Positions 205-60,903 of a stretch of DNA of 64,000 bases are shown here, piece after piece. Positions within the stretch are counted from its first letter, which is position 1; each line of letters starts with the position of its first letter. The stretch is taken from IMG/VR virus record IMGVR_UViG_2574180309_000001, positions 1 through 64,000 of that record, one strand, 5' to 3'. The notes under the pieces were generated by a model. The model worked only from the letters and a program-made list of their open reading frames with translations. It was not told the DNA's origin and did not search any database. This DNA comes from a virus (Duplodnaviria; Caudoviricetes). A program made the translations under genes and the position numbers.

Positions 205-418
205 AAATTCCCCTCCTAGAAATTTTCATTTGTTAATTATAATATAAATATAGTAAAATTAAGTTCTCTAAAACTACCCAAAAAGGACTGCCAGTAATGG
301 TGGTTCTTTTATATTGGTGAGATTGTACTAGTATGATAGAATAAGAACAACTGTATATTGTAGGGTGGGCGGTTACGACTGTCCTTTTCTCATTTAATGA
401 GGAAAGGAGGTGTAGCCA

Positions 419-574
419 ATGGATCTATTTCTTCAAATAGTATTAGAGGTAATTAAGACGATCGTACGAGAACTTGTAGTTTTCGTGGTTAAGAAAATTA
501 CTTCTAAAAATAAAAAGAAGAAGACCACCCGTCAGCCTCGCAAGCGTGGGAAGTCTTCTAAATCTAAAAAGTAG
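419..574 (+). CDS. Putative type I toxin peptide, 51 aa
   Basis: MDLFLQIVLEVIKTIVRELVVFVVKKITSKNKKKKTTRQPRKRGKSSKSKK: amphipathic helix plus basic tail. Strong RBS AAGGAGGTG lies within a hairpin; terminator at 616-642. Confidence 0.65.
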   Translation: MDLFLQIVLEVIKTIVRELVVFVVKKITSKNKKKKTTRQPRKRGKSSKSKK

Positions 575-675
575 TATTTAGTCGCAACCACTCACCTTGC
601 GGTAGCAGTTACTTGAAGAGATGTTAGCGCATCTCTTCTTTTATTATATACATACTGTATTACTGTAATACTAAT
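510..675 (-). ncRNA. Putative antisense antitoxin RNA
   Basis: Minus-strand sigma-A promoter TTGATT-N16-TATAAT with TG extension (682-709); hairpin at 521-558 followed by a U-rich tract; overlaps the 3' half of the peptide gene. Confidence 0.5.
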
Positions 676-1045
676 ACAGTAATTATATCAAATGCACATA
701 AAAAATCAATGCGTACGTAATGGATATAATGGACAAAAGAAAAGACACCCTAAGGTGCCTTCCTCTACTCAATCTACATAAGACTTTTCTTACAGCACAA
801 ATGTTTGCTGCAGCTCTATTAATTGGTTTAGGAGTAATCCCGCTTTGTTCTTAATTTAAGGAACTCCAAACAGCCTTACCTTTCAATTGATAAACCTCAA
901 GTGTATGAATACTTGGGGGTTTTCTGATAAAGAAAAGACACGCTAAGCAAAAAGTACAATAAGCTGCCTAGATGGACAGCTTATTTGTATAATTTCCATT
1001 GTTAGAAGTTATTGGGAAACCTCTTGTTCAGAGAAGGTTACTGTT

Positions 1046-1234
1046 TTAGCTTCTTGCCTTGTAAATCTTGTCTGCTCTATTTATGCTAAGAAACGTCAGA
1101 ACGGTTGCAAGTACAACAAGGACTATCCAATAGCCATTTCCTTTTACAGCAAAAACAACTGATAGTATTGATAGAAACATTGCAAGTACAAAACCGGACA
1201 TGGTTTTTGAATCCTTCAACATTAACCAATTCAT
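1046..1234 (-). CDS. Small two-TM membrane protein
   Basis: MNWLMLKD... with RBS AGGAGGTG and two hydrophobic segments. Confidence 0.7.
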   Translation of the reverse strand: MNWLMLKDSKTMSGFVLAMFLSILSVVFAVKGNGYWIVLVVLATVLTFLSINRADKIYKARS

Positions 1235-1535
1235 TTTTTCACCTCCTTTTTTTATTGTATCATTCAAGGATAACAATTTGTTTGGATTTTTGGATGTATA
1301 TACTATTCATGCAAAGTTAACATAACGTCCTAGTATTGGTAGCAAAGAAAAAGGGGAATCTTTACTCTCAGAAGGAATTCCCTTTTTTATTTTCTATAAC
1401 GCTATTCATCTTTTTATACATTCCTATTATGGTGCGATTTTAGGTTTCTCGTTTATTCCTGGATTAGTCGAAAAACTGTATAAAATCTTGTATGCTCTTA
1501 GCGTGTTTTTTTCCTAAATGCTGACGCTACCCAAT

Positions 1536-1640
1536 AAAAAAAAGACACCCTAAGGTGTCTTCCGACTTAAACCATCTTAATTTTAATAATATGTATCTCG
1601 CAAATATAATTTTACCATATTTAGTTATTTAACACATTGA
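1536..1640. repeat. ~100-bp intergenic repeat, copy 1 (copy 2 at 9199-9314; partial copy at 740-763)
   Basis: Shared AAAAGACACCCTAAGGTGYCTTCC...GACTTRAACCATCTTAATTTTAATAATATGTAT...TTTTACCAT. Confidence 0.85.
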
Positions 1641-1656
1641 GAAATGTTGTTCAAAT

Positions 1657-2136
1657 CTATATTTTATTACGAATCGATTTCAATACACCATCAACATTGT
1701 AATCAGGAATATTGCTAATCGTTCTCTTTTTTGTACCTAACATTTTCTTTATTTTTAAGTAAATAACACCAGTATTCACGTTGGATAAGCCAAATAAATT
1801 TGGAGCAATATCGAAGTCTACGTTTTTAATATCCTTGTATTTAATTACTTCAGCTTCAGCGCCTCCGAAAAATCCGCCTTTCATCATTACGAGGTAGAGA
1901 TTATGTTCCCCTACAACCATAAATCCCATTTTTGTTAATTTAGGATTAGCAACTTCAAAGCAGTAGATCGCTTCTTTAGCTTTCATAACCTTCTTTAAAG
2001 CATCGAAAGCATATTTATAATATGTGCGTTCTGTTTTCGGCAGTTCTTTTGATATTTCAACCATTTCTGCAAGTGTAACTGGGTATTCAATAATGCCAAA
2101 ACGTTCATCAATTTTAGTGTATTTTGGAGTAGCCAT
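1657..2136 (-). CDS. Bacterial PH-domain protein (YokE/bPH_3-like)
   Basis: Pattern GFMVVGEHNLYLV...IKYKDIKNVDF resembles bacterial PH folds. Confidence 0.55.
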   Translation of the reverse strand: MATPKYTKIDERFGIIEYPVTLAEMVEISKELPKTERTYYKYAFDALKKVMKAKEAIYCFEVANPKLTKMGFMVVGEHNLYLVMMKGGFFGGAEAEVIKYKDIKNVDFDIAPNLFGLSNVNTGVIYLKIKKMLGTKKRTISNIPDYNVDGVLKSIRNKI

Positions 2137-2256
2137 ATAATATCCCCTTTAAAAATGTAAGATTTAACCCAAGCATAACAAATCCAGTTACAACTATTTT
2201 GTCATATTTTGTCGAAGAAAAATAAAAAGCACTCATAAGAGTGCTTATCCATAAAT

Positions 2257-2817
2257 CTAATGTTTTTTACTAGATTTTTTATGTCCTTTATTTCGTTCAC
2301 AAGCCACGCCATCACCATCACGATCTAAATGTGAAGCATAAGCTGGGCTATCTGGAGTTATATCATAGTAACCAGCATTATTTGCATCTGTACAGTTTGC
2401 AAAGTGAACTTTCTCTTGTTTAGGTGCAGCTTGTTGCTGAGGTGCTGTATTAGCTGCAGCTTTTTGTTGCTCCTGTTCTTTTGCTTGAGCTGCTTCTTGT
2501 TGTTTCTTTTGTTATTCCTGTTGTCTTTGAGCCCCTTCTTTGCGTTGTTCATCTAATCGTTTTTGTTCTTCAGCCTTTTTCTGTTCTTCCAACTTCTTTT
2601 GTTCCTCAGCCTGTTTTTGTTCTTCGGCTTTTTTCTGTTCTTCTATTTTCTTTTGTTCCTCTTCCTGTTTTTGCTCATCTAGCTTCTTTTGTTCATCTTC
2701 TTTTTTAGTTTCTTGTTTTGGTTCTTCTGATGTACTTGCTTTATCATTTGAACCACAAGCAGCCAATCCCATGAGTAACACGCTGCATGCTAAAGCCATT
2801 AATAATTTTTTGCTCAT
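2257..2817 (-). pseudogene. Lipoprotein with coiled coil and C-terminal Excalibur Ca-binding domain, interrupted by one in-frame stop
   Basis: Lipobox LAAC; TAA at 2512-2514; the same frame continues to FANCTDANNAGYYDITPDSPAYASHLDRDGDGVACE. Confidence 0.85.
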
Positions 2818-3265
2818 AATTTAATTCCTCCAAGATATATATAATGTAATATTTCTGCACAATCTTATCAAAATAAACATCTGTATATTGTTATATTGTG
2901 TCGAATAGGAATAAAAAAAGAGAGAGCTATAACTCTCAATGGGGAAATGATAAGAATTTACCGATGGATATTAGAGAGATATCTTCTATTTTTTACTAAT
3001 GTTGAATAATGGTTTTTATCAAATCTATCGGGAGATGTGGTTTTAATATGGCTAGGAAGGAGTGTGTCTCGAAAGGTGTACCTTTCGAAACGATATGAGA
3101 TGTGTCTTTTATACAGTTAAGAAGGATTTCAAAAAGGGAAATTATCTGAGGATGATATTATTTTAGAGAATTGATACTTTATAACATAATGTAAGTTTTG
3201 ATTAAAATGAATAAGGATATTTTTGAAAAATAAAAAACGTCCTTCAAAAGAAGAAACGTTTTTTA

Positions 3266-4585
3266 TTATTTTGCAAATGTATTACGATATTCATTAATAA
3301 AATGATTATTTGGTAATTTACTATTACCTTTGCCAAATAATTTTTCTCGATAGGTACCTTCTGTATATTGTGTTTTATAAAGACCACGTTTTTGTAATTC
3401 AGGAACTACTAAGTCAATAAAATCTTGAAAGGTGCCTGGGGATATATATTGTACCAAATTAAAACCATCAATGTCTGTTTCTTCAACTAAATATTGCATT
3501 TCATTAGCTATTTCTTTAGGCGTACCTATAAGTAGCTTAAACCATTTTCCATCTATTTTACTCAAATTCCCAATAATTTCTTTTACACTTAATGTACCTA
3601 TGTAATCATTAATATTGTATTGAGATAAATCATATCCACTTCCACCAGCATAGTGAGCTATATTTCCTTCAAGGCTCCAATATTTTTGGAAAGAATCGAA
3701 TTTTTCGATTGCTTCTTCATATGTTTTTCCAACAATTACACATATTCCTGCAAACAGTTTAATATTGTTAGGATTCCGACCGTATTTTTCAGCTTTTTCT
3801 CTAATGTCTTTTACAACATATTTTAATGTTTCCACATCTTTTCCGCCTAAAAATATGCCTTCTGCATGCTTAGAAGCAAATTCTCTTCCCCTTTCTGACA
3901 TTCCAGCTTGATAAAGAACAGGTGTACGTTGTGGAGAAGGTTCGCTTAAATGTGGTCCAGGTACATTGAAATATTTGCCAATATGATTAATTTGATGCAC
4001 TTTATTGGGATCTGTATATATTTTATTTTCTCTATCACGAATAACTGCATCATCTTCCCAACTAATTTCCCATAATTTATAACAAACTTCTAGAAACTCA
4101 TCAGCTAAATCATATTTTTCATCGTGATTAAGTTTAGTTTCTATGCCAAAGTTTTTTTCTGCACTAGATAAATGTGAAGTAACAATGTTCCAAGCCATTC
4201 GACCTTTTGTTAAGTGATCTAGTGTTGACATGCGTCTAGCATATCCATATGGATGCTCGTAAGAAGTTGAAAAAGTTACAGCGAACCCTAAATGTTTTGT
4301 TACATTGGCCATAGCTGATATAATCATCAATGGATCGTTAGCTGGAATTTGAACAGCTTCACGAACTGCAGTATCTTTATTCTGTTGATATGTATCATAT
4401 ACACCAACTACATCAGCTAGAAAAAGAGAATCAAACATCCCTTTTTCTAGTAATTGAGCGAGTTCTGTCCAATAATTTAAATCTGTGTAACGATGTCTTT
4501 GGTTATCTGGATGAGCCCAAAGCCCGTGAGAAATATGTCCTACACAATTCATTTCAAATGCATTCAAATAGATTTTTTTCTTCAT
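3266..4585 (-). CDS. Luciferase-like (LLM) flavin-dependent monooxygenase, NtaA/DszA/SnaA family
   Basis: LEKGMFDSLFLAD, TLDHLTKGRMAWNIVTS, PSPQRTPVLYQAGMSERGREFA motifs. Confidence 0.9.
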   Translation of the reverse strand: MKKKIYLNAFEMNCVGHISHGLWAHPDNQRHRYTDLNYWTELAQLLEKGMFDSLFLADVVGVYDTYQQNKDTAVREAVQIPANDPLMIISAMANVTKHLGFAVTFSTSYEHPYGYARRMSTLDHLTKGRMAWNIVTSHLSSAEKNFGIETKLNHDEKYDLADEFLEVCYKLWEISWEDDAVIRDRENKIYTDPNKVHQINHIGKYFNVPGPHLSEPSPQRTPVLYQAGMSERGREFASKHAEGIFLGGKDVETLKYVVKDIREKAEKYGRNPNNIKLFAGICVIVGKTYEEAIEKFDSFQKYWSLEGNIAHYAGGSGYDLSQYNINDYIGTLSVKEIIGNLSKIDGKWFKLLIGTPKEIANEMQYLVEETDIDGFNLVQYISPGTFQDFIDLVVPELQKRGLYKTQYTEGTYREKLFGKGNSKLPNNHFINEYRNTFAK

Positions 4586-4616
4586 TTTGATAATCCCCTT
4601 GATGTTAAAATTCTAT

Positions 4617-5858
4617 TTAAGAAACTATTTTGTTTTCAAGTTGTTCATCTTGTAAATTTATAATTTTTTTATTTAACATCCAAAGATTTGAGACTATTAA
4701 TAAAATACCAGCTACCGTTAATACACTTTGGACACCAATGATATCACTCAATATACCAGCAAATAAAGCTCCTAATGGAATTGTTCCCCAAGTCATCATC
4801 ATCATACTGCCACTAATTTCTCCTCTTATGTGTGAAGGTAAGACTATTTGCTGAATTGTAACACGTGCAATACTTCCAATACTTCTTGAGATGAAGAATA
4901 AAATAGTTCCTACTACAAATATGATAATTCCAGGTTCCCCTTTAGCAAAACTTGCTAAAAGTAATCCGCAACTTGGTATTATTGGAGCGAAGACCATAAC
5001 TTTTATTACACCAAATTTATTAATTAACTTTGGTGCGAGAAAAGATCCAATTATTGCACCAATACCACTTAGTGACATTAATATTCCTGTTAGGGATGTA
5101 CTAAGATTTAGATCTTTTACTAAGAAAATTACTACAATTGCTGTATACATAGAGATAGCAAAATTTATAGTTCCAGTTGTAAATACTAATGTTCTGAGAA
5201 CAGTGTTTTTAAAAATATATTTTAAATTTTCTATACGTGTACTTTTTTTATTTACAACTTTTTTCTCTTGGATATTTTTGTTTTGTTTTTCTTTAGGACT
5301 TTTTATAGTTATTATGGTTATACAAGAGATAATTAGGCTTATGGAAATGCAGAGAAGTGTATATGTCTCTCCTAATATCCCTATACAAATTCCACCTAAT
5401 GCTGGTCCAATTAAGTTTGCACTTGATCTAGCAAATTGTATTAATCCATTTATGCTTGATAATTCTTTATTTGTATATATATCTGGCATCCATGTTGTCA
5501 TTGTAGTTTCAATTACTACTAAACATAAACTAAGTAATAGTATTATTATAAAGTAACTTTCTTTTGTTAAGTTTGCAGATAAAGTTAAATATGAAAATAA
5601 CCCAAATACAAGTGAATTAATTAGTAGGGTAGTAGTAATTATATACTGTCTATTCCATTTATCTGCAATTAATCCTGAAATATAACCGAATAATAAATAA
5701 CCCATTGATGCTAATGAAGCAGCAATTGCTATAGAAGAATTATTTAATGCTAATACTTTAATTCCAATTATAGGAATTAAAATCATTAATATTTCAGTAG
5801 AAATATACCTTATTGTTTCTTCAGTTCCAATTTGAATGTTTTTAATTTTATTTTGCAT
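4617..5858 (-). CDS. MFS exporter
   Basis: ~12 TM segments, GLIADKWNR motif A, IGPALGG. Confidence 0.9.
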   Translation of the reverse strand: MQNKIKNIQIGTEETIRYISTEILMILIPIIGIKVLALNNSSIAIAASLASMGYLLFGYISGLIADKWNRQYIITTTLLINSLVFGLFSYLTLSANLTKESYFIIILLLSLCLVVIETTMTTWMPDIYTNKELSSINGLIQFARSSANLIGPALGGICIGILGETYTLLCISISLIISCITIITIKSPKEKQNKNIQEKKVVNKKSTRIENLKYIFKNTVLRTLVFTTGTINFAISMYTAIVVIFLVKDLNLSTSLTGILMSLSGIGAIIGSFLAPKLINKFGVIKVMVFAPIIPSCGLLLASFAKGEPGIIIFVVGTILFFISRSIGSIARVTIQQIVLPSHIRGEISGSMMMMTWGTIPLGALFAGILSDIIGVQSVLTVAGILLIVSNLWMLNKKIINLQDEQLENKIVS

Positions 5859-6922
5859 TAGAATGCTAATTCCAATTTATTTTCTATATTATTTTCAGGA
5901 TGTAGTTTAGAAAAGAATTCATCAACATCTTTTATGGCTACATTTTTTTCAATATTGAATTTTTTTGTGATGGTATTTACTATTTCTTCTTTCGAATTTC
6001 CTTCGAAAGCAAGAGTGTAGAAAAGTACTCCTATTTCATCCAAAATGTGATATACATCTTTTTTCGAATTGTGCAGCATAGAAATTTCTTCCCAAAATCT
6101 ATAATGTCGTGCAATCCATGCAGGAGAATCCTTTTCTGCTTGTTTTAATAACTCATAAGGTTTATTAGCTTGATTTAAATATGATTTTATCGTTTCTCTA
6201 TTAAGTAATGAATCTATATAATCTGCTACTTCTTTACTTTGTATTTCTATATTCCAGCCTTTAATCTGTTGTGCTATTGGGGAAAACATTGCATCAGCTA
6301 AAGAAAAATCTCCGAATAAGAATTGTCCAAGCCAATTTTTTTTCTTTTTACGTTCTAAAGTCTGTTTAAGTAATTGTAAAGTTTCTTCTAATTGTTCTAA
6401 TGCATCTTCTGGTATTTCTTGTTTATCGACACCTCTAAATGAATTTGAATAGGACATTCCACTCATTAATGGTAATAAGTCTGCATGAATATGATTACTA
6501 AACACACGTATGTCATTTCTTTTTACTATATCGGTACTTAATAAAGTAGGAAATTCATTAAAGTTTTCTTCTAAATAATCTGATATAGCCAGACTGTCAC
6601 ATATTACTACATTTGTTTCATCATCTATTAAAATAGGAACCCTTGGTAAATGTTCCACTATACTTCCTTTTAATAGTTGTGTATTATCAATTTTTAATAA
6701 CTGGGTAAGCTGGCATCCGCAACCTGATGCTGGTTCTTTTGGTAAATCGTAATCATCTTTAGCGTTTATGGGTATTAATCCACTATCAGTGAATTTAATA
6801 GGCCAATCTAATCCTGCTATAATTTCTTGATAAGGTACTTTTTTTTCTTTTAAAATAATTGAAGCACGCATTGACCATGATGAAAATTGTTTATCTCCAA
6901 TAATTAATGTTAACATGTGCAT
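5858..6922 (-). CDS. Glutathione S-transferase-fold protein fused to a C-terminal PqqD/RRE-like domain
   Basis: FSSWSMR, RVPIL, DSLAISDYL and FLFGDFSLADAM GST motifs; C-terminal YHILDEIGVLFY...EEIVNTITKKFNI...KDVDEFFSKL is RRE-like. Confidence 0.8.
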   Translation of the reverse strand: MHMLTLIIGDKQFSSWSMRASIILKEKKVPYQEIIAGLDWPIKFTDSGLIPINAKDDYDLPKEPASGCGCQLTQLLKIDNTQLLKGSIVEHLPRVPILIDDETNVVICDSLAISDYLEENFNEFPTLLSTDIVKRNDIRVFSNHIHADLLPLMSGMSYSNSFRGVDKQEIPEDALEQLEETLQLLKQTLERKKKKNWLGQFLFGDFSLADAMFSPIAQQIKGWNIEIQSKEVADYIDSLLNRETIKSYLNQANKPYELLKQAEKDSPAWIARHYRFWEEISMLHNSKKDVYHILDEIGVLFYTLAFEGNSKEEIVNTITKKFNIEKNVAIKDVDEFFSKLHPENNIENKLELAF

Positions 6923-6935
6923 CCTCCTCTATATT

Positions 6936-8297
6936 TTATGCGGAACATCCTGATGTTTTTTCTGGTTTAGATTCAAAAAAGTGTGGTAAATGACATCCAC
7001 CTCGACAACTTTCTAATTGACTACAGCCAATACATGTTTGTCGTGGATTAAGAACATCTGATACTTTTTTAGTCATTGCACCCCATATGTTTTTAATACC
7101 ATCGGTAACAGCATCACCAAAGAAGACATTACTATGTGGACAATGTCTTAATTGACCAGTAAAGGATACACTTCCCCAAGTTAATCCGGCTTCACAATGA
7201 CCAGATAGTTGTCTTTTTCTTAATGGTAATGTAGGATCATCAATGTTTAGCGGCATATCTTCATTTGAAGTACACATTTTTTGACCACATGGCCATGCAA
7301 CAATTAAATCTAAATATTGTTTTTGTAAATCATCAATTTTTTGCATTAATGGAAGCATATTTTCTATGGGAACACCGTAGGCATCATCATTTTTTCCAGT
7401 CGGGACATACCTCATTACACTAAAATGTTTTGCTCCATTTTTATATGCATCTTTCATTACCTCAATTGCTCCATTAAAATTACTTTTTACTAAAGTTAAT
7501 TCAACTACAACTTCGATCTCTTCCTTTGCTAGTGTTTCGATAGCTGTGATTGCTTTTTGATAAGCCATTTTGTGGCCTGTTAATGCATTATGAACAGTTT
7601 TATCACCATGTAGAGAAATTAAAACTGTTCCTACGTTGTATTCTTTAAAGCGTTTAGCTAGTTCAATATCTAAAAAATGACCATTTGTAAAGACAGCTTG
7701 ATATAGACCAAGTTTCCCCCCATATGCTAGAATTTCTTCAATATCAGGATGTAATAATGTTTCACCACCGCTATATCGGACTGTAAAACATCCATTATCA
7801 TGGCATTCATCTAAAATTTTAAAAATCTTTTCCTTTGGAAGATGTTTTTGTTGTAATGATTTAATTTTTTTTCGGACATCATCATCAGTCAGATTAGGAT
7901 CGATTTTCCATACGTTATAACAGAAACCACAGTTCCAATTACATAGAGATGTTACTTCTATTTCTATACGCAAAGGAAATTCAAGTAACTGTTCATGCTT
8001 TTTTTCAATGTCCCATTCCCAAATATTTTCTTGATTTGTATTAATACTATATAGAAATTCTTTTAAATCATTTATTAATTCATTTTTAGTGACGTCATAT
8101 TCTTGTAAAATATAATTTGTAATGTAGTTAATATCATGATTTTGTTTTATTAGAGATACGACTAAAAGCCCTAAATCATTATCAATCCTATGTATAACAC
8201 CAGTTTTACTATCAAATAACATACCTACATCTTCTCTGAATTTTAAATTTTTAATTTTATCTATAAATGAATTTAATTCATTGGAACTTATATTCAT
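6936..8297 (-). CDS. Radical SAM/SPASM peptide maturase with N-terminal RRE
   Basis: CNWNCGFC, SGGE and TNG motifs; SPASM cysteines CEAG...RHC...CIGC...CRGGC; N-terminal ~85 aa is PqqD-like. Confidence 0.92.
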   Translation of the reverse strand: MNISSNELNSFIDKIKNLKFREDVGMLFDSKTGVIHRIDNDLGLLVVSLIKQNHDINYITNYILQEYDVTKNELINDLKEFLYSINTNQENIWEWDIEKKHEQLLEFPLRIEIEVTSLCNWNCGFCYNVWKIDPNLTDDDVRKKIKSLQQKHLPKEKIFKILDECHDNGCFTVRYSGGETLLHPDIEEILAYGGKLGLYQAVFTNGHFLDIELAKRFKEYNVGTVLISLHGDKTVHNALTGHKMAYQKAITAIETLAKEEIEVVVELTLVKSNFNGAIEVMKDAYKNGAKHFSVMRYVPTGKNDDAYGVPIENMLPLMQKIDDLQKQYLDLIVAWPCGQKMCTSNEDMPLNIDDPTLPLRKRQLSGHCEAGLTWGSVSFTGQLRHCPHSNVFFGDAVTDGIKNIWGAMTKKVSDVLNPRQTCIGCSQLESCRGGCHLPHFFESKPEKTSGCSA

Positions 8298-8326
8298 AAT
8301 GGTTCCCCCTCAAATTTGTATTCATC

Positions 8327-8358
8327 AAAAAGAGAGCAAGTTCCCCTGCCCTCCTTTT
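8327..8358 (-). terminator. Hairpin/attenuator between precursor and maturase
   Basis: Minus strand AAAAGGAGGGCAGG-GGAA-CTTGCTCTCTTTTT; the G-U pairs form only on the minus strand. Confidence 0.7.
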
Positions 8359-8366
8359 GTTTTTAA

Positions 8367-8435
8367 TTAGTTACATTGTAAAGATGGTGCTTTACCAGAT
8401 TTTACAGTTGGACGTTTGTATTCTTTTTTAGCCAT
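8367..8435 (-). CDS. Putative RiPP precursor peptide, 22 aa: MAKKEYKRPTVKSGKAPSLQCN
   Basis: Hand translation; RBS GGAGGGG; YxxPxV RRE-binding leader motif; first gene of the operon. Confidence 0.85.
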   Translation of the reverse strand: MAKKEYKRPTVKSGKAPSLQCN

Positions 8436-8522: not shown

Positions 8523-9090
8523 TAAAAAACTGTAAAGTCTAAATAGACTGAAAATTAATCTGTGATTAATATACACTTTACCTTTAACTAAGTAAAGTAT
8601 TTTTGAAAAAAAATACTTTAAAGATAAAAAATTACATTTAAAAGTCTTAAAAAATTATATCCATATATAAATGAAAATGTTTCTCACTCAAATCATTTAT
8701 ACTCAAAGAATATAATTCACTACAGATAAAAACTGTTAAATCTAAATAGACTGACAATTCACAGTAATTAATATACACTTTATCTTTAACTAAGTAAAGT
8801 GTTTTTGAAAAAAATTACATTTAAAAGTCTTGAAAAAATTATATCCATATATAAATGAAAATGTTTCTCACTCAAATCATTTATACTCAAAGAATATAAT
8901 TCACTACAGATAAAAACTGTTAAATCTAAATAGACTGACAATTCACAGTAATTAATATACACTTTATCTTTAACTAAGTAAAGTGTTTTTGAAGAAAATT
9001 ACATTAAAAAGTCTTAAAAAAAATTATATCCATATATAAATGAAAATGTTTCTCAATTTAGTTGTTTATAATCAGAGGATATAATTCACT
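8523..9090. repeat. Three tandem copies of a ~184-bp unit upstream of the precursor
   Basis: Copies start at ~8523, 8727 and 8911; copy 1 has a ~20-bp insertion; internal IR ACACTTTA-N12-TAAAGTGT. Confidence 0.9.
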
Positions 9091-9198
9091 GTGAATAATA
9101 TCAAACCAATAATCCCATCTTTTCCAAAGTAGAACATCATGTCCGTATAAAAAGGTCATGACTAAGGAAAATTAATCTAATTATTAATTTTTTCTACA

Positions 9199-9314
9199 TA
9201 AAAAAGACACCCTAAGGTGCCTTCCTCCGACTTGAACCATCTTAATTTTAATAATATGTATTGGACTCCCATCCGAATATTATTTTACCATGTTAAGTAA
9301 TTTTATGCATTGAG
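9199..9314. repeat. ~100-bp intergenic repeat, copy 2
   Basis: Matches 1536-1640. Confidence 0.85.
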
Positions 9315-9415
9315 GGGTATCGCCACATCACCATCAAGCTAAGGTTTTTATTTTTTTATTAAATCTATTAAAATATTTATTAGTATTGGAAAAAATTTCT
9401 GGAGTGGATAAGAAT

Positions 9416-10222
9416 ATGGAGAAGATAGGAAATTGTAGATTATGTGGGATGGAAGGAATCCTTCAAGATAGTCATATAGTGCCAAAGTTTATAGGTAGAT
9501 GGATAAGAAAAACATCAGAAGCGGGAGATTTAAGGATTCCCTATAATCCTAATAAACCTGAATATGACCTGTTTAGTACACACCTCCTTTGTAAGAAATG
9601 TGAAGGTATCTTCAGTAAGTTTGAAACTACTTTTGCAAATAAGATATTTTATAAATACCAAGATAATGATAGAAAATTCGAATATGATGATTGGTTAATG
9701 AATTTTGTTATCTCATTAAGCTGGCGTATTGGAACTTTATATTTTGTTAATAATTCTTTTGATGAAACAAATAGCAAGCATGTGTTATTAAATGAGGCAT
9801 TGAACTTATGGGGAAGTTATTTACTTGGCGACAATACAAATTATGGTAGTTATAATCACCACTTATATTTTGTAGATGAAAGTAAGATTTCTGAAGATTT
9901 TCCACCCGGATATAAATATTATTTTAATAGGAGTGTTGATGGGCATGTAAGCTATTTACCTAATGGTGAAATGAATATTTATTGCATGTTACCGGGAATG
10001 TTGATTGTTTCAAATATTTCTCCTAAATCAATAAAGGGGTGGAGGGGAACAATTATAAATCGCTTTGGAACACTTCATAAATACAAACAATACACTCCCA
10101 TTAATATTGCAAATTACATGGTAGATCGCACTATAATTTCAAGCTATTCCCTTCTAAACGGCATTAGTGATCAGCAAATAGAAAAAATTAAAGTAAAAGC
10201 TTCAAAGAAAAAGGAAAGCTAG
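9416..10222 (+). CDS. HNH-like nuclease-domain protein, possibly defence
   Basis: CRLC...SHIVP...LLCKKCE..FS pattern. Confidence 0.6.
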   Translation: MEKIGNCRLCGMEGILQDSHIVPKFIGRWIRKTSEAGDLRIPYNPNKPEYDLFSTHLLCKKCEGIFSKFETTFANKIFYKYQDNDRKFEYDDWLMNFVISLSWRIGTLYFVNNSFDETNSKHVLLNEALNLWGSYLLGDNTNYGSYNHHLYFVDESKISEDFPPGYKYYFNRSVDGHVSYLPNGEMNIYCMLPGMLIVSNISPKSIKGWRGTIINRFGTLHKYKQYTPINIANYMVDRTIISSYSLLNGISDQQIEKIKVKASKKKES

Positions 10223-10600: not shown

Positions 10601-11245
10601 ATGAAGTTGAAAAAGGAAGATTTTATGGAGAATCTAATTGAAGCATATGATTTTTTAATTACTTCTGTTGATGTATTTGATAAAAAGCAAAAATATCATG
10701 AGGCCAAAAGAATGGCAACAACTGTTAGGGTTCTTTTACATGATACAAATCAATCAACATCATTGTTAAAACATCTAGACCGAAAAGATATACATTTTTG
10801 TGACTCTTCATTTAAACATGACATGGTTCAAGAGGATGGATCTATTTGCATTATGCCACTGAGTAAACCAATGTATTATGAAGAGGTTAGTATTGATGGA
10901 GTTACACTGATACCGTACTTGAATGAGAATGAAGAGAAATACATTCCATTTAAGGAATGGTGGGAGGAACAAGTAATATTAACAAATGGATATGGTAACA
11001 CATTTACAAGAAAAAGTATTGTTACAGAGCTTGCAAATCGAGACGGAGGTGCTCATGTTGATAGCAAACTTCGTGATTCTTACTTCCATTTGACTAGAGG
11101 GATTTCTACAGGAGAGACGTTTCAAAGAAATGATGGGGATCCTGAGCCAATTCCTAATCCTCATTTGTTTACAATGAGACAAATTACTTATGAGGTAATA
11201 AAAACATTAGAAAAAGAATTTAATGAATTTATTGAACTGGAATAG
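10601..11245 (+). CDS. Hypothetical protein with HEPN-like motif
   Basis: R.LLHD and ANRDGGAHVD motifs. Confidence 0.5.
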   Translation: MKLKKEDFMENLIEAYDFLITSVDVFDKKQKYHEAKRMATTVRVLLHDTNQSTSLLKHLDRKDIHFCDSSFKHDMVQEDGSICIMPLSKPMYYEEVSIDGVTLIPYLNENEEKYIPFKEWWEEQVILTNGYGNTFTRKSIVTELANRDGGAHVDSKLRDSYFHLTRGISTGETFQRNDGDPEPIPNPHLFTMRQITYEVIKTLEKEFNEFIELE

Positions 11246-11497: not shown

Positions 11498-12685
11498 TTA
11501 TATCCAGTAAAAAATATTTGAGTTTCCCATTCTATCTAATAAAGAAATTGCTATATCATGCTTTTCTTCATAACGATATTTCCATAATAATAATTTAATT
11601 TCCGTTAAATCAATGTATTGTTTTAAGACTTTTAAAACATCATATAACTTAAGGACATATTTGTTTGCTCTCATAGGTGTAAGACCTAATTCGGAAATTA
11701 AATGCTGGTTAATTTTTAAGGAACTTGATGTTCTGAAACGATTAACCAATTCGAAATGTGCACACGTATTACGTAATTCTCTAATGATTTGCAAAGAATT
11801 TAAAAATTTCTCTTTGTCTTTTGGTTTTAGATTGAAATCCCTTAAAATAGCATCAAAAGTACGTTTCTTTAGTCCATAAAGTAAAAGAATTAAATCATTA
11901 AACATTAGGGTTTTAATAACAACCCAAAATGGAGGATTGTTATATTCATTTATAAATGGAAACCTTGTTTTGCATTCATCGATATAATTTAACCCATATA
12001 TTCTTTCATCCTTAATGGTTATTGGTGTAGTAATAGATGTTCCTGATGAAGGGGCAAGCGAATGAATATGTGCTACTAATGATGCTTGTTTCGAATTAAA
12101 AAAGGTGCACTTACCTTGGACTGTATTTATTGATGTAGATCCAAATCTGCCCGTAAATGTTCCTTCAAGTATAGTTTGCCCACGGGCGGGATTATAAGTC
12201 ACATCTCCAGAAAAATCTCCACTAAAAATGCCTTCGAAATAAGCTGATTTTTTAAATAATTTATGTTTCTTAAAATGTTTAGTATATTCTTTAGGTCCAT
12301 CTGTTCTTTTGGGAAGAGAATAACTAGTAAGTTCAATGTATTTATTATTATCACATAAAGTAGAGCAATGATTTTTACTAAAATGATAAGATATAGAAGT
12401 CTTTAATTTGTTTTCGAGTTCCGAAATTTTTTGGAATATTAAACTTGAAAGTTGATTATCAAGTTTATAAAGACTTAAAAAATCATCAAAGAAAACATTA
12501 GTATAATATTTAGATGTACCTTTAGGGTCATCTAATAAAAGGGTTTCAAAACCATTTATTAAATTAAAATAATTTTTTTCATGAAGATGTAATTTTGCAT
12601 TTTTTAAATCTTGAATAGCTAAATTCCGATCTCTTAATAAACGTAATTGATCCACGACAGCTTTAAACTCTTTATCTGAAGGCAT
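11498..12685 (-). CDS. Abi_2/AbiD/AbiF-family HEPN RNase
   Basis: LRDRNL.I, NYFNLINGF, ELENKLK, PPFWV and LRNTCAH (RxxxxH). Confidence 0.85.
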   Translation of the reverse strand: MPSDKEFKAVVDQLRLLRDRNLAIQDLKNAKLHLHEKNYFNLINGFETLLLDDPKGTSKYYTNVFFDDFLSLYKLDNQLSSLIFQKISELENKLKTSISYHFSKNHCSTLCDNNKYIELTSYSLPKRTDGPKEYTKHFKKHKLFKKSAYFEGIFSGDFSGDVTYNPARGQTILEGTFTGRFGSTSINTVQGKCTFFNSKQASLVAHIHSLAPSSGTSITTPITIKDERIYGLNYIDECKTRFPFINEYNNPPFWVVIKTLMFNDLILLLYGLKKRTFDAILRDFNLKPKDKEKFLNSLQIIRELRNTCAHFELVNRFRTSSSLKINQHLISELGLTPMRANKYVLKLYDVLKVLKQYIDLTEIKLLLWKYRYEEKHDIAISLLDRMGNSNIFYWI

Positions 12686-13218
12686 CCCTAAAAATCTCCC
12701 CTTATTTTTATGTAACCACATAATAAAAAGTAATAGTTAGAGACAATTTTAGTGAAATAAATATGTTAGTAACCTTTTGAATAACATATTTTCCTATTTG
12801 GATAAAATTTTATGTATTATCAAAAAAGTGTCTTTTATTACTTAGTAGTTAATAATTTATATATATATATTATAATAAAATCGGAAGAAATTTAAGTATA
12901 TTTTAAATAGACATAAATAACCGCACGATTAAGATATATAATTTTTTTGAAAAGTATATTTAAAAATTTGAATGTTATTTTAGATGGTATGTATTTTCAA
13001 TTAGGTCTAGAATATGATTTTTTAGTAATCAATATAGAATTCGACTTGCATATATAGTTGTAATCACATTTAGTTTGGTGTTCAAAAGAAAGTGAATTTT
13101 ATTGCTTATTCCTTTGAAATGTAAGATTTTATGAACTCATGTAATGAGTCCGATTACAATAATTTGGTCATATTGTGTTGAATAAAAATAAAAAAGAGAA
13201 CCATAGCTCTTTTTTTTA

Positions 13219-14487
13219 TTAAGTAGCATCTATTTTTGAAAACTTCGTAGCCAGTGAACAAACGATGAATAGACAATATAGTTGAAGGTATAACATCACG
13301 TAGTTTTCCTCAGCAAATTCAATTAAATATTTTTCTGTTGTGATTTTTTTATCTTTAAAAATTAATTTTTGACTAATAGACTCATATTCCACCGAGGCAT
13401 GATTTATAGCATTTCGTATTTTATTATTTAGAATGGATAGATCATTATATCTGGAAACACCTGAAGATATTTTTTTTAAGTATTGAATTTGAAGTCCAAT
13501 TGGTTTATTTAAAAAATTTTCTAGTGAATTAGTATTGTCCGAAAATTTATTAATGTCTTTTCTGTTAATGATATTATCAATAACAACTATTAAAGGAATT
13601 ATTTTCCCAAGTATTTCATAGTTTTCAGCATAATTTTGCAGTAGAGTCTTATAGTTAGCTGTGCTTAGACCATAATCCTCCTTTATTGTTTCAATCTTCT
13701 TATGGTTGAACGTTTCAGAAGTAATTATAGGAACAATATTAGGAATAATACTTATTGAAGAATAAAAAGCGTTAATTAAAGAATTAATTAGGCTAGGTAA
13801 TTTATCTTGAAATAAGTCTTTAACTTTTTGAAATTCAATATTATCCTCATACATTTTATAAAGATTATTTTTAATATCATCTACCTGGAACTTTTTCTCA
13901 TTTAGCTTTAATAAAGGGCTGATACTATTTACAATTGCCGAAAATAATATAGAATATCTGTTTATATTGTAATCAGTAGCAAATTTTTCTTCAGGTATAT
14001 TTAAATTCCTAATTAATCTTTTTAGTTCTGAATAAACATATTTAACATTATTTTTGTTACTAAGTACTAAATTGACAAGATTTTTATGATTGTTGACATC
14101 TTGTTGAATATCTTCAGCCAAGTAAACCGCTAACCCATTCATTTTTTCTATATGAGGACCAAGGTTTCTCATAAAAGGGCTTGGGGTAAAAGGAAAATAA
14201 CCCTTAAGAGAAGAGAGTTTCTCATCATAGAATTCACCGGTTAGTTGAATACAGTAACCTTCTTTAGATTCTAAAATATTTCCAGTGAAATCTATTAAAT
14301 TATCGAAATTCCAACCTATTCTAACATTTTTATTATCTACATTAATCGTTCCTTCAATCATTACTCCACAAGTTGGGCACTCGAAAGAAAAATGGTTTTC
14401 TGGTACATAACCAACTTGATATTTTATTAAATATGGAGTTTCACAAACCTTACATTTTGTTTTGAAACTATGATTCATAATCATCAC
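13219..14487 (-). CDS. Zinc ribbon plus C-terminal HEPN-like protein, possibly defence
   Basis: CKVC...CPTC at the N-terminus; IRNAINH. Confidence 0.6.
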   Translation of the reverse strand: MMIMNHSFKTKCKVCETPYLIKYQVGYVPENHFSFECPTCGVMIEGTINVDNKNVRIGWNFDNLIDFTGNILESKEGYCIQLTGEFYDEKLSSLKGYFPFTPSPFMRNLGPHIEKMNGLAVYLAEDIQQDVNNHKNLVNLVLSNKNNVKYVYSELKRLIRNLNIPEEKFATDYNINRYSILFSAIVNSISPLLKLNEKKFQVDDIKNNLYKMYEDNIEFQKVKDLFQDKLPSLINSLINAFYSSISIIPNIVPIITSETFNHKKIETIKEDYGLSTANYKTLLQNYAENYEILGKIIPLIVVIDNIINRKDINKFSDNTNSLENFLNKPIGLQIQYLKKISSGVSRYNDLSILNNKIRNAINHASVEYESISQKLIFKDKKITTEKYLIEFAEENYVMLYLQLYCLFIVCSLATKFSKIDAT

Positions 14488-14836: not shown

Positions 14837-16717
14837 ATGTATATATCTGATGTGAAAATTTTGAATTACAGAAGCTTTTCAGAGTTTAATGTAAGCTTGA
14901 ATGAAGGCTTATCTATAATCATTGGAGAAAATAATGCGGGGAAATCCAATTTTTTAGAGGCGTTGAGTCTTATCTTTAATAGTAATTACTCATTACGAAA
15001 AAGAATATTACAACAAGAGGATTTTTGGAGTGGACTCAATATTCAAGGGAACTGGCCAGAGATTACAATTGAGGCAACTTTAAAAGGAATCGAAACAGAA
15101 AACGATCTTGCTATTACAAGTAGATGGCTAACAAGAAATCCAGGAGAGGCAAAACTTACCTACAAGTACAAACCAAAGGCAAATATTTCGGTTTCAGCTC
15201 CTCTTGATGCTACCCCTATTAGCAAAATTCAGCTTCCCCTTCATGAGTATGAGTGGATAATTTATGGTGGGGAGCGTGAAACATTAGACACCTTTGATTT
15301 TAATATGCTATCCAAGTTTGGAGTCGAGTATGTAGGGGCTCTTAGAGATGCAAATGCTGAATTAAAAAAGTCCTCTGGTCAATTACAGAGAATCCTAAAA
15401 AATTTCGATCTTGGAGAAGAGGAGCTTCATAAGATTTCAGGAAAAATTGATGAACTTAATGAGCAAATTATGCAAGGTAGAGAAATTCAGAAGGTACAGA
15501 GTGATATCAATGAACATCTTCGAAAAATTACAGGGACTATGAGACAGCAAGTAAAAATCCAAATGGGAGAAAGTGACTATGACGCTTTATTAAAAGATTT
15601 AAAGGTCCTAATTGGTTCATATGAAGACAGAGTACATTCTGTTGATATGAATGGCCTTGGTTATAATAATTTGCTGTATATTAGCCTTTTACTTACTCAA
15701 TATACAGCCATTAAGGAAAAGCGAAATCAAAATCATGACTATGTGTTTCCACTTTTAATTGTTGAGGAACCGGAAGCCCATCTGCATAGTCATTTACAAA
15801 AGTTCTTAGCTAATTATTTCTTTAATCAGAAAGTCGTAGGCCAGGTTATTATGACAACCCATTCTTCACACGTTAGTTCGCATGCAGAACTGGATAATTT
15901 AGTAGTGTTTTATAAGGGGAACAATAGGACATTATCTAAACGTATTGGAACAATTTTTGATACCAATAAAAAAGAGGAAAGAGATTATAAACGGTATTTA
16001 GAAAGATGGTTAGATGCTACCAAATCTGATATTTTTTTTGGTAGAAGGGTCTTATTAGTAGAAGGAATTGCAGAACGTCTATTAATACCGAAATTTTTCT
16101 CTATGCTACAAAATCGATACGCGGGAGAAGATAAAACATTAGAAAGTGAAGGGATATCTATTATTTCAGTAGATGGTGTAGCATTTAGACCATTTTTACA
16201 GTTATTTGGATCAAAGGGATTAGATATGAAGTGTGCTGTTTTGACTGATAGTGATCCAGAATCTGTTCCAGTAATAGACATGCATGGGGATGAAGTGATT
16301 GGAAGTGACGATAAGGTTGTAAAAGAGGCAGTTTATCCTACGAAATTTGGTGATTTTCCAATCTGTTCAAGAACAACTGGTTTAATTAATGATTTTAGCA
16401 CATCCTCTAATATTTATATATCTAGTAATCTTAAAACATTTGAATATGATTTGATGATGGAGAATAATGCATCTTTCTTTCGTGAGTTAATTCAAACATA
16501 CGATATTGGAACAAAAACAGAAAGGGAAAGAATTGTTACTTTGGACGGGCACGAATTTGCAAAAGAAGCCTATGAAGTTATTTCAAAGGAGAAGGGTCAA
16601 TTCTCCCAGTTCATATTAGATGAATTGAATAAAGGGAAAGTTCTTCATATTCCAGCATATATCAAGCAGGTATTTAGTTTTCTTACGAATGAAGAGGAGG
16701 TAAGAAGTGATGGTTGA
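14837..16717 (+). CDS. gajA: OLD-family ABC ATPase/TOPRIM nuclease (Gabija GajA-like)
   Basis: GENNAGKS, EEPEAHLH, TTHS, VEGIAE and DSD motifs. Confidence 0.85.
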   Translation: MYISDVKILNYRSFSEFNVSLNEGLSIIIGENNAGKSNFLEALSLIFNSNYSLRKRILQQEDFWSGLNIQGNWPEITIEATLKGIETENDLAITSRWLTRNPGEAKLTYKYKPKANISVSAPLDATPISKIQLPLHEYEWIIYGGERETLDTFDFNMLSKFGVEYVGALRDANAELKKSSGQLQRILKNFDLGEEELHKISGKIDELNEQIMQGREIQKVQSDINEHLRKITGTMRQQVKIQMGESDYDALLKDLKVLIGSYEDRVHSVDMNGLGYNNLLYISLLLTQYTAIKEKRNQNHDYVFPLLIVEEPEAHLHSHLQKFLANYFFNQKVVGQVIMTTHSSHVSSHAELDNLVVFYKGNNRTLSKRIGTIFDTNKKEERDYKRYLERWLDATKSDIFFGRRVLLVEGIAERLLIPKFFSMLQNRYAGEDKTLESEGISIISVDGVAFRPFLQLFGSKGLDMKCAVLTDSDPESVPVIDMHGDEVIGSDDKVVKEAVYPTKFGDFPICSRTTGLINDFSTSSNIYISSNLKTFEYDLMMENNASFFRELIQTYDIGTKTERERIVTLDGHEFAKEAYEVISKEKGQFSQFILDELNKGKVLHIPAYIKQVFSFLTNEEEVRSDG

Positions 16718-18878: not shown

Positions 18879-19569
18879 AGAAGATGTTCTATTTTTACGT
18901 TTACTTCTTATGAAGTAGGACTAGAGAAATGGAAGTTTACAAAAATCAGGTGGTTATACAATTGAAAAGTTCAATTTATCGGTATTTAAATAGAGAAATC
19001 GAGCTTTTTTTGCTATATAAGCATTTCCAGCATTATAGGAAATTGCAAACTTTTGTGGAACGAATGCCCCTGTTAGTTAATTTAAAGTTACAAAACAAAA
19101 AGATCATTTACTATCTTTTTTGTTTTGTAACTTTTTCAAATACAATGAAACTTTCTTAGTAAAAGGACCTCACAGCCGTTCATGAAGGTCTTCATAAGTT
19201 CCCGTGGTTATAATATACGGTAAAATATGCATTTGGCACTCTATACAGAAAGATGCACTATTGCATATCCTTATCCGTAAGTGTGAGAAAGCGTTGATAT
19301 AAAGCTATTTTCAAACTTTCTCAACTTTTTTCTGATAACCACACGACTGAATTTTGGCAAAAATATGATATTATGAAAATAATAAAATAAACGGACGTAA
19401 AAAGACCCACGGTGCAAGTAGTGCTGGTAACACTCTTACACTGCCCCTACTACCCTAGGGAACATTGTCGCGGATCTTATACATATAATTATAACACACC
19501 ATAGATTGAGGGTGGCACGTTTTCCTTTATGGGGTTTACGTGTCTTTTGTTCCGGCAAGGAGGAGCAAA

Positions 19570-60312: not shown

Positions 60313-60903
60313 ATGACGGACGAAATTGTTTATTCTGCTAGTGAAGTATACAAACGACTAGGAATAAGTGATAGCACCCTTAGAAAGTACATGGAAGTAT
60401 TACAGCGAGAGAAATACATCGTAAAGAAAGATAATCGTGGCAGACGCCAATACACAGACAATGACATTATGGTGATTGAGAAATTAATCGAACTGAGTAA
60501 GCATGACGGTATGACGCTAGAAAAGGCAGCTAAGATGATTGCACAGCAAATAGAAAAAGTTAATCCGGATTTGATTCAAGAAGAAGTTGAGGAAACGGAT
60601 TTAGTGCCATTCCACATTAAACAGCAATTACAGGAACAGTACAGCGTTATGGCGCAGGAAATGAATCAAAGCATGTTAGCGATGGAGAAGCGATTGAGTG
60701 ACCAGGCGGAGCAAAACAATGAGGAAATCAAAGCGAGCGTAGAAGCGCATAATGAGCGCGTGGAAAAACGATTGGAAGCGCGGGATGAGACGCTTATGAA
60801 GACACTACGTGAAATGCAGGAAACGAAGAGAATGATGCAGGAATTTCGAGATGAGGTTGCTGCTGCGAAAGAGAAGAAAAAACCGTGGTGGCGGTTCTGG
60901 TAA
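60313..60903 (+). CDS. MerR-like HTH, coiled coil and amphipathic tail (DUF3967/RacA-like)
   Basis: SDSTLRKY, RRQY; C-terminal KKPWWRFW. Confidence 0.8.
   Translation: MTDEIVYSASEVYKRLGISDSTLRKYMEVLQREKYIVKKDNRGRRQYTDNDIMVIEKLIELSKHDGMTLEKAAKMIAQQIEKVNPDLIQEEVEETDLVPFHIKQQLQEQYSVMAQEMNQSMLAMEKRLSDQAEQNNEEIKASVEAHNERVEKRLEARDETLMKTLREMQETKRMMQEFRDEVAAAKEKKKPWWRFW

Follow-up and report, generated by a model that had tools for sequence, protein, structure and literature searches.

What does the short operon at positions 3266-8435 of a phage-derived DNA make, and what might its product act upon? The stretch analysed, here called the window, is 64,000 nucleotides long and constitutes the first 64 kb of the 72,866-base IMG/VR record IMGVR_UViG_2574180309_000001, which is classed as 'linear'. 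The operon begins with an unannotated gene for a 22-residue peptide and continues with genes for a radical S-adenosylmethionine (SAM) enzyme, a glutathione S-transferase (GST) fusion, a major facilitator superfamily (MFS) transporter and a flavin-dependent monooxygenase. Comparison with related loci indicates that it is very probably a biosynthetic operon for a peptide made by the ribosome and modified after translation (RiPP), and that its relatives are repeatedly linked to an additional glycyl-tRNA synthetase (GlyRS). An earlier reading made from the letters of the window (the sequence-only reading) had described the small open reading frame (ORF) with its ribosome-binding site, the hairpin behind it and the four co-oriented enzyme and transporter genes, all of which are present on the minus strand. 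That observation is confirmed and its interpretation was largely right; the crosslinking and further processing that it proposed we too infer from sequence.

Precursor peptide and predicted modifying enzymes

The operon and its signals are arranged as follows (aa, amino acids; RRE, RiPP recognition element; FMN, flavin mononucleotide; LLM, luciferase-like monooxygenase).

8448-8442, minus strand: ribosome-binding site GGAGGGG, read from the sequence, 6 nt 5' of the precursor ATG
8435-8367, minus strand: precursor gene, 22 codons, MAKKEYKRPTVKSGKAPSLQCN, heading the co-oriented operon
8359-8326, minus strand: hairpin between the precursor and radical SAM genes, 15-bp stem, -23.4 kcal/mol, z -5.85
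8297-6936, minus strand: radical SAM/SPASM enzyme with an N-terminal RRE, 453 aa
6922-5858, minus strand: GST-RRE fusion, 354 aa
5858-4617, minus strand: MFS transporter, 413 aa, its start overlapping the GST-RRE stop
4585-3266, minus strand: LadA-type FMN-dependent monooxygenase (LLM), 439 aa, 31 nt 3' of the MFS gene
3267-3229, minus strand: terminator-like stem and U-run closing the operon, z -3.38 for the 136-nt stretch folded
8626-9090: upstream of the precursor gene, 2.5 tandem copies of a 184-bp repeat (Tandem Repeats Finder, 95% matches)

The peptide contains Y6-x-x-P9 near its N-terminus and Q20-C21 near its C-terminus, and ends in Q-C-N. Y-x-x-P is the docking motif of lasso-type RRE leaders, and the sequence suggests that Y6-x-x-P9 is a putative RRE-docking motif and Q20-C21 a putative modification site. 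Among 78 genomic loci that were fetched, 35 (L004-L036, L038 and L047) encode a radical SAM enzyme that aligns over the RRE region and 43 are more distant. A six-frame search with the pattern [YFW]-x-x-P-x10-Q-C-x(0-2)-stop located a peptide of the form Y-x-x-P-x10-Q-C-x(1-2)-stop next to the radical SAM gene in 33 of the 35 loci, and in none of the 43, whose enzyme is without the RRE region. The two exceptions are L021, where the matches to the radical SAM enzyme and to a GlyRS (GlyQS) are partial and the cluster is probably degraded, and L026, where a contig end cuts the locus. The pattern is highly specific: of 36 matches in the 2.14 million six-frame residues of 80 loci, 35 lie beside the radical SAM gene on the same strand. 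It also occurs in both plasmid loci (pLW1071 and Clostridium tagluense pCM008-C) and in 17 of the 24 metagenome loci examined (L087-L110, the best of 80). A narrower pattern, Y-x-R-P...C-x-stop, was dropped as it missed the Nocardia peptides. The sequence-only reading had suggested a RiPP-type cassette and a survey of homologous neighbourhoods for a YxxP...C peptide; across several phyla those neighbourhoods keep it.

The relatives of the precursor span Bacillota, Actinomycetota, Bacteroidota, Pseudomonadota and Acidobacteriota. In an alignment of 27 peptides Met1 and the Tyr, Pro, Gln and Cys residues are invariant, no insertion or deletion occurs from Tyr to Cys, and the conserved region covers 17-18 residues. 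The 10-residue spacer from Pro to Gln is fixed, 1-2 residues follow Q-C, and every one of the 27 contains a single Cys. The codons for Y, P, Q and C differ synonymously between lineages, and the position of the ORF shifts along with the enzymes where the gene order differs. Two sub-types can be distinguished, one ending Q-C-[N/D/S/A/H/G] and the other ...T-E-N-L-P-P-Q-C-S-F. The precursor of pLW1071, MSKAKKEYKRPTVKSAKGPSLQCN (24 codons, NC_009329.1, L082 1877-1951), is unannotated, as is the ORF of pCM008-C, these being the two plasmid records with gene tables; the PLSDB tables are incomplete. The start context of the precursor gene in Priestia (L004) and Geobacillus (L005) is like that of the window. 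In Staphylococcus rostri (L035, with features at 107-181, 253-678 and 881-1903) the precursor MTNKVQKEYKKPEVKSGKALGHQCN is intact, the radical SAM match is limited to residues 18-162 and the MFS gene is directly next; this cluster looks degraded.

The radical SAM enzyme scores 75.8 bits against Pfam Radical_SAM (cut-off 29.5). Its N-terminal region reaches 20.1 bits with Pfam PqqD, below the cut-off of 23.4, and PF05402 is recorded for many homologues. In a profile of the whole family the N-terminal 60 residues match the lasso RRE protein TfuB1 (6jx3_B, E 4.5e-6), and the profile aligns full-length with SuiB and CteB, from residue 9 or 20. As judged from these alignments the N-terminal domain is an RRE. 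The enzyme family is highly conserved. The CX3CX2C motif (C119/C123/C126) is invariant in 14 aligned homologues, as are the auxiliary-cluster cysteines C337, C342, C368, C386, C422, C425, C431 and C435, which include a CX2CX5CX3C arrangement that we take to be the SPASM auxiliary-cluster motif; some homologues are also annotated with Pfam SPASM (PF13186). The closest solved structures by family profile are all peptide maturases, namely SkfB, SuiB, PqqE, anSME and CteB. No NCBIfam family cut-off is reached by the enzyme, the top matches giving 60-80 bits against cut-offs of 265-850.

The second enzyme consists of a GST fused to a C-terminal domain that matches Pfam PqqD with 29.1 bits, above the cut-off, and shows weak matches to lasso PqqD models. 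RRE domains thus occur in both enzymes, and the Y-x-x-P of the peptide fits an RRE-docking motif, as the sequence-only reading had held. The N-terminal part matches GST_N_2 (37.8 bits vs 25) and GST_N_3 (36.8 vs 22). In the AlphaFold model (mean confidence, pLDDT, 91.6) the N- and C-domains form a full GST fold, and the first ~260 residues superpose on the YfcF-like GSTs 4jbb, 4mp4 and 3bby over ~255 columns with template modelling (TM) scores, normalized to the target, of 0.84-0.88. Residues S14, W16, R19, D39-W40-P41, C68, V95-P96, D100, Y235, Y256, W269 and R275 are invariant in 31 GST-RRE sequences, and an inserted loop contains a CxC formed by the invariant C68 and the nearly invariant C70. 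The N-terminal Ser (S14) and the V95-P96 loop presumably occupy the thiol-activating and thiol-binding positions of the G-site. Many of the hosts, Bacillaceae and Nocardia among them, are not known to be glutathione producers. A protein-atlas search yielded nothing beyond the cluster of the protein itself and generic GSTs, and was not counted as evidence. RRE-GST fusions are given as absent from known RiPP classes in the portion of the RRE-Finder paper that was available (PMC7470986). Combined with the absence of a dedicated NCBIfam match and of any paper found, this bears out the earlier suggestion that the gene combination corresponds to no described RiPP class.

The radical SAM enzyme of the window is 82% identical to that of Priestia, 75% to those of Geobacillus and Anoxybacillus, 67% to that of Rummeliibacillus, 55% to that of Staphylococcus pseudintermedius (a cluster of 572 member sequences) and about 49% to those of Nocardia. 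Further homologues are found in Streptomyces, Zoogloea and Azorhizobium, and more distant ones in Azospirillum and a cyanobacterium. In 22 of the 35 loci a GST-RRE gene neighbours the radical SAM gene even though the gene order varies: Bacillaceae have it downstream of that gene, and Nocardia, Chitinophagaceae and Zoogloea have it upstream. Two more radical SAM genes take its place in a branch comprising Azospirillum, Terracidiphilus and SAR324, and one Clostridia locus has an additional radical SAM gene and a TrmO-like domain. Oxygenases also recur: an Asp/Asn-hydroxylase-like (AspH-like) protein in Zoogloea, a PhyH dioxygenase in metagenome locus L098 and the LLM in Bacillaceae. Since the GST-RRE is missing from some loci and other enzymes are present in other branches, the invariant core is, by this comparison, the peptide together with the RRE-bearing radical SAM/SPASM enzyme; the GST-RRE is not the general pathway step that had been supposed. 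The system is found on plasmids, in a region resembling an integrative and conjugative element (ICE) and on one phage-plasmid. Near-identical cluster DNA in the sequencing runs of 13 studies was not counted as evidence.

The hairpin behind the precursor gene was not equalled in stability by any of 200 shuffles, and a hairpin of differing sequence is found at the same place in all five other low-GC loci that were folded (L004, L005, L082, L083 and L020). It is probably a leaky terminator or a stabilizer that sets the ratio of precursor to enzymes. Upstream, every copy of the 184-bp repeat contains a promoter-like TTTACT-17-TATATT on the minus strand (8982, 8798 and 8596, as consensus matches only), so that the promoter may be multiplied. 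In metagenome locus L089 a divergent gene upstream of the cluster (5248-6543) encodes an RRNPP-like regulator of 431 aa with an HTH_3 domain and tetratricopeptide repeats (TPR), and a TPR protein is encoded upstream of the Priestia cluster (L004 6201-6797). These genes hint at quorum-sensing control in those two clusters; the window version has no such regulator.

The last two genes encode the transporter and the monooxygenase. The MFS protein is a putative exporter or immunity pump, and MFS genes lie behind the GST-RRE gene in Bacillota versions (L004, L005, L082, L087, L089 and L083). The monooxygenase matches TIGR03860 (NtaA/DmoA family) with 520.1 bits (cut-off 279.7) and the 'Alkane monooxygenase' PDB 3b9n with 835 bits, and is 79% identical over 435 residues to LadA of Geobacillus thermodenitrificans plasmid pLW1071 (PDB 3b9n/3b9o), of which it is, by this identity, an orthologue. 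The sequence-only reading had treated it as a generic C-N or C-S bond-cleaving enzyme of the pathway, a role that does not suit a LadA orthologue confined to some Bacillaceae versions (the window, L089, pLW1071 and G. icigianus).

Whether this monooxygenase belongs to the pathway at all is the question on which an alternative survives best. It may be unrelated cargo, an alkane or hydrocarbon hydroxylase, in which case the unit would comprise only the peptide, the radical SAM enzyme, the GST-RRE and the MFS pump. The gene is absent within 8 kb in Priestia L004 and is missing from the versions of Nocardia, Chitinophagaceae, Zoogloea and C. tagluense; on pLW1071 ladA (L082 104-1426) is divergent, about 450 bp from the precursor gene, which is followed by the radical SAM, 'PqqD family' GST-RRE and MFS genes; and in the window a promoter-like site (4639-4610) lies just upstream of the LLM gene, in an operon without a flavin reductase gene. 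Against this, the window gene is co-directional, 31 nt behind the MFS gene and inside the terminator-bounded unit. In L089, where the radical SAM enzyme is 67% identical, the gene order is that of the window, with an overlap between the MFS stop and the LLM start. Two Geobacillus loci also keep the gene nearby, divergent and adjacent on pLW1071 and, in G. icigianus, about 7 kb off behind transposase genes, that is, parted only by insertion sequence (IS) elements. The cargo explanation is therefore considered unlikely, although it is the strongest of the alternatives, and the placing of the LLM outside the cluster was dropped given the pLW1071 adjacency, the identity with LadA and the L089 operon. 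We read the LLM, from gene order and similarity, as a probable lineage-specific tailoring enzyme of the Bacillaceae versions. The literature on LadA located here, at the level of listings and abstracts, does not mention a peptide-cluster context, and finding a textbook enzyme in this new context raises the question of its native substrate.

Linked glycyl-tRNA synthetases and the proposed product

The strongest functional clue is one beyond the view of the sequence-only reading. Of the 35 genomic loci, 25 have a GlyRS gene within the fetched flank, and the arrangements number at least five. In type-1 loci of Nocardia a 1015-aa fused GlyQS starts within the stop region of the radical SAM gene (NF011499, 1312.7 bits vs 1244), and in five type-2 loci a dimeric GlyS is directly upstream of the peptide. 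The Chitinophagaceae locus L020 has a 486-aa dimeric GlyS that ends 90 nt before the peptide gene (TIGR00389, 404.8 vs 243.3) and adjoins a TraG-like coupling protein. Among the metagenome loci GlyQS is convergent in L090, follows as in Nocardia in L091 and L093, is about 3 kb downstream and coupled to the PhyH dioxygenase in L098, and is also present in L097.

In all eight genomes with a cluster GlyRS that were checked for copy number, this gene is extra to a separate dimeric GlyS. Two dimeric GlyS genes, located on separate contigs, were counted in each of the 5 Nocardia genomes that have type-2 loci. In the two Nocardia genomes with type 1 only, the cluster GlyQS accompanies a single dimeric GlyS, and the Chitinophagaceae genome has two dimeric GlyS that are mutually 29% identical. 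Nocardia arizonensis (L034 and L038; G001) has two peptide and radical SAM systems, one of type 1 with a GST-RRE and the fused GlyQS and one of type 2 with a dimeric GlyS; its GlyS paralogues are 79% identical and, with the type-1 GlyQS, it has three GlyRS genes in all. An L086 row was left out of these comparisons, the frame picked there being on the wrong strand. Because the cluster copies add to the separate dimeric GlyS of the host, it is tentatively proposed, by analogy, that the product acts on GlyRS and that the extra copy serves self-protection.

It is also conceivable that the linked GlyRS is biosynthetic, with Gly-tRNA or a GlyRS-like activity adding or exchanging a residue on the modified C-terminus and the product acting elsewhere. 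The C-terminal residue of the peptide is indeed not constant (N, D, S, A, H, G or SF), a variation that would fit its being dispensable or exchanged. Extra aminoacyl-tRNA synthetase (aaRS) copies in biosynthetic gene clusters have, in the part of the source available (PMC12945691), an established self-resistance role for AlaRS and IleRS and also a role as aminoacyl donors, the paralogues SbzA and AcmD/AcmF being described as donors or transferases. However, the linked copies exceed the equivalog cut-offs for genuine GlyRS (NF011499 and TIGR00389), two structurally different GlyRS types in different lineages fit protection better, and the Bacillaceae clusters are without any GlyRS. This alternative is judged improbable, and by analogy a resistance role for the linked GlyRS appears more likely than an aminoacyl-donor role. 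No natural-product cluster with GlyRS self-resistance, nor any GlyRS-linked radical SAM RiPP, was found in the literature searched, which covered few subscription journals.

These features can be combined into a mechanism. The Y-x-x-P motif would dock on the RRE domains of both enzymes, and the fixed spacer would act as a ruler placing the C-terminal Gln-Cys in the radical SAM active site, where radical chemistry on the single Cys or a neighbour could form a thioether or oxidize the Cys. The GST-RRE would recruit the peptide of the radical SAM enzyme via its own RRE for a second, thiol-directed step, and in the Bacillaceae branch the LadA-type flavin monooxygenase may add an oxidation. The MFS pump would export the product, which would hit GlyRS, the extra GlyRS copy protecting the producer; the Bacillaceae versions may rely on the pump instead. 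On this scheme the operon is presumably a competition weapon of the lysogen. The joint reading, an operon for a RiPP of an uncharacterized family with this mechanism, GlyRS as the target and a role in competition, is given a probability of roughly 0.6. More speculative, and doubtful as a whole, is an extended version in which the product is the first natural ribosomal inhibitor class against GlyRS with a modified Gln-Cys-X warhead, the Gln-Cys-X tail is a glutathione-like (Glu-Cys-Gly-like) thiol substrate of the GST-RRE, the peptide is the native substrate of LadA in Bacillaceae, and the phage-plasmid spreads the weapon along with anti-phage defences.

Several points weigh against the joint reading. 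The window cluster has no GlyRS gene, and the genomes of Priestia and G. icigianus contain one dimeric GlyS each, with none in the cluster, so that the GlyRS inference reaches the window only by homology (radical SAM enzyme about 49% identical to Nocardia). Many Nocardia loci are near-identical and hence non-independent, and the number of independent cases is accordingly nearer five architectures. The extra GlyRS could serve biosynthesis and not resistance. With only one Cys, the peptide cannot give a classical multi-bridge sactipeptide. LadA reportedly has alkane hydroxylase activity and could be unrelated cargo. The operon encodes neither a leader protease nor a flavin reductase. Finally, portions of each of the four enzyme and transporter genes are covered by RNA-library contigs (X16, X18 and X10, the RNA origin of X10 being a guess), with X10 covering the peptide gene as well and X10 and X18 running across the MFS-LLM junction; these contigs may be DNA carry-over and were not counted as evidence of transcription, and gaps in their cover were given no weight.

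Another possibility is that the peptide is the precursor of a redox cofactor or metabolite, like those of pyrroloquinoline quinone (PQQ) and mycofactocin, and not of an antibiotic; radical crosslinking would be followed by release of the C-terminal Gln-Cys-X, which oxidoreductase partners, for instance the LadA-type enzyme, would then employ. The precursor is indeed the size of PqqA and is taken here to be invariant only in C-terminal residues, PqqE and MftC are among the related radical SAM families, the phylogenetic spread is broad, and oxygenases (LLM, PhyH and AspH-like) recur nearby. However, the scores for PqqE (59.6 vs 381) and MftC (64.4 vs 265) are far below the equivalog cut-offs, no analogues of PqqB/C or MftD/E/F were seen among the cluster genes, and a dedicated MFS pump is present. 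Mobile carriage on plasmids, the ICE-like region and the phage-plasmid also speaks against a cofactor, and extra GlyRS copies are hard to explain by one. This explanation is held to be slightly more improbable than a biosynthetic GlyRS. Least credible is that the small ORF is a regulatory leader or a chance ORF and that the RRE enzymes act on an unlinked peptide or small molecule, for the lack of annotation on pLW1071 and pCM008-C and the attenuator-like hairpin count little beside the strong ribosome-binding site, the 35 of 36 pattern matches next to the radical SAM gene, residues invariant under synonymous codon change across phyla, and an ORF that moves with the enzymes.

The joint reading, if true, would define a new RiPP class with a tiny precursor containing a single invariant Gln-Cys and a GST-RRE architecture without a characterized example. 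Repeated recruitment of GlyRS provides a concrete target hypothesis, and no natural-product precedent for a GlyRS-directed antibiotic was found in the same literature. Within that coverage no paper was found on the family, on the gene combination or on LadA together with a radical SAM enzyme. One of the nine novel biosynthetic gene clusters in the RRE-Finder paper, in the portion available (PMC7470986), may correspond to the present family. An S. pseudintermedius pan-genome paper reports an sboA/AlbA-annotated operon, which may or may not be the present cluster. RiPPs modified by radical SAM enzymes are a known kind of system; several aspects seem novel here, namely the family of the precursor, a GST-RRE as partner enzyme, the linkage to GlyRS genes, the setting of LadA and carriage by a phage-plasmid.

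The carrier element

The sequence-only reading placed the cluster on a prophage. The carrier is instead a phage-plasmid of the Bacillus cereus group and not an integrated prophage. Bases 1-2890 of the record are 99.9% identical to bases 69976-72866 (L003 9976-12866), and this 2.9-kb end overlap makes the element ~70 kb and either circular or terminally redundant; it is probably a ~70-kb circle or a molecule with long terminal repeats. It encodes ParA, a replication initiator (Rep), FtsK/SpoIIIE and a small PF00239 resolvase, and no match to a tyrosine integrase (PF00589) was found on it. Phage structural and lysis modules are present, the structural arm being 88.7% identical to Bacillus phages BceA1, SpaA1, phiS58 and TP21T, and the backbone is like that of 54-87-kb B. 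cereus-group plasmids.

The flanks, near 240-3200 and near 9200, recur in related plasmids that lack the cluster. Given these shared flanks and the neighbouring defence genes, the cluster is cargo in a variable defence and competition arm, which also contains the following.

11498-12721: AbiD-like Abi_2 gene, adjoining the peptide cluster
14837-18503: complete Gabija pair, GajA (626 aa) and GajB (598 aa)

Four ORFs in between (9386-10222, 10601-11245, 13219-14487) gave no Pfam, NCBIfam or PADLOC family match. Dispersed repeats of 48-115 bp, 82-92% identical, occur at window 1538-1641 and 9188-9314 and at record 66676-66723, 69526-69597 and 71515-71618; they lie at the borders of cargo modules, the peptide cluster's right edge among them, and may be recombination sites for cargo exchange. 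That a temperate phage-plasmid of the B. cereus group would combine a peptide-antibiotic cassette with AbiD and Gabija bears on the payoff of lysogeny.

The earlier statement that no protease is encoded holds for the cluster and not for the element. A 324-aa Peptidase_S8 subtilase is encoded at record 68288-69262 (L003 8288-9262), which on the circular map is about 4 kb past the operon end; the enzyme is a candidate for the leader protease, and nothing ties it to the cluster. The companion statement on flavin reductase stands, none being present in the operon. Neither megablast of the cluster against phages nor tblastn of the radical SAM enzyme against 50,697 phage records produced a match, and no relative of the enzyme was present in 2.9 million IMG/VR contigs, collections from which its own record may be omitted. 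Carriage by a phage is thus known only for this record.

Other features of the element include an AimR-type arbitrium receptor (window 19540-20742; PF22871, E 2.7e-42) at the start of the phage early region. Window 2512-2817 encodes a predicted lipoprotein of 101 aa with low-complexity (E/Q/K)-rich repeats, which lies inside the 2.9-kb terminal repeat and so occurs twice in the record. A 285-bp direct repeat, 90% identical (window 60607-60891 and 62303-62584), brackets a gene for an S-layer homology (SLH)-domain protein (60961-62100).

Comparison with known systems

The nearest known systems are the sactipeptides and ranthipeptides made by SkfB, AlbA and CteB, which share with the present operon an RRE-fused radical SAM enzyme with auxiliary Fe-S clusters and a small adjacent Cys-containing precursor. 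SkfB is the best solved-structure match to the enzyme, and CteB aligns full-length. The scores against the dedicated families are nevertheless far too low (TIGR04403 SkfB, 61.3 bits vs 300; NF012164 AlbA, 49.4 vs 850), and the precursor has a single Cys in the penultimate or antepenultimate position whereas several Cys donors, forming a hairpin of thioether bridges, are expected of the sactipeptide class. We know of no GST-RRE partner in either class.

The PQQ and mycofactocin systems are similar in having a very short precursor that is modified at its C-terminal end by an RRE-guided SPASM enzyme, possibly to give a small molecule. PqqA contains an E-x3-Y motif and MftA ends in GVY. The present peptide has no E-x3-Y and ends in Q-C-N in place of Val-Tyr, and the radical SAM enzyme reaches only 59.6 bits with TIGR02109 PqqE (cut-off 381.35) and 64.4 with TIGR03962 MftC (265). 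None of the other genes of those pathways is found here, while an exporter is present and, in relatives, a linked GlyRS. The lasso systems with a B1/RRE protein such as TfuB1 resemble the operon in the Y-x-x-P in the N-terminal part of the peptide and in the profile match of the radical SAM enzyme (E 4.5e-6), and differ in that no lasso cyclase or B2 protease is encoded here. LadA of pLW1071 differs in context, the LLM being the last gene of the peptide operon in the window and in L089.

The clusters for mupirocin, albomycin and microcin C contain a resistant copy of the target aaRS. Relatives of the present operon likewise have an extra aaRS in or abutting the cluster, as do the clusters with AcmD (ascamycin) and SbzA (SB-203208) described in the available part of PMC12945691. 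They differ in that the synthetase is a GlyRS and the scaffold a ribosomal peptide modified by a radical SAM enzyme, and the window cluster has no aaRS; no ThiF/MccB-like adenylyltransferase was present among the cluster genes scanned.

With respect to its carrier the operon invites comparison with sublancin, a prophage-borne RiPP encoded on SPbeta. In both cases a temperate Bacillus phage element would carry a peptide-antibiotic cassette as cargo of the lysogen. The present peptide is of another class, and its carrier is plasmid-like, with ParA and Rep.

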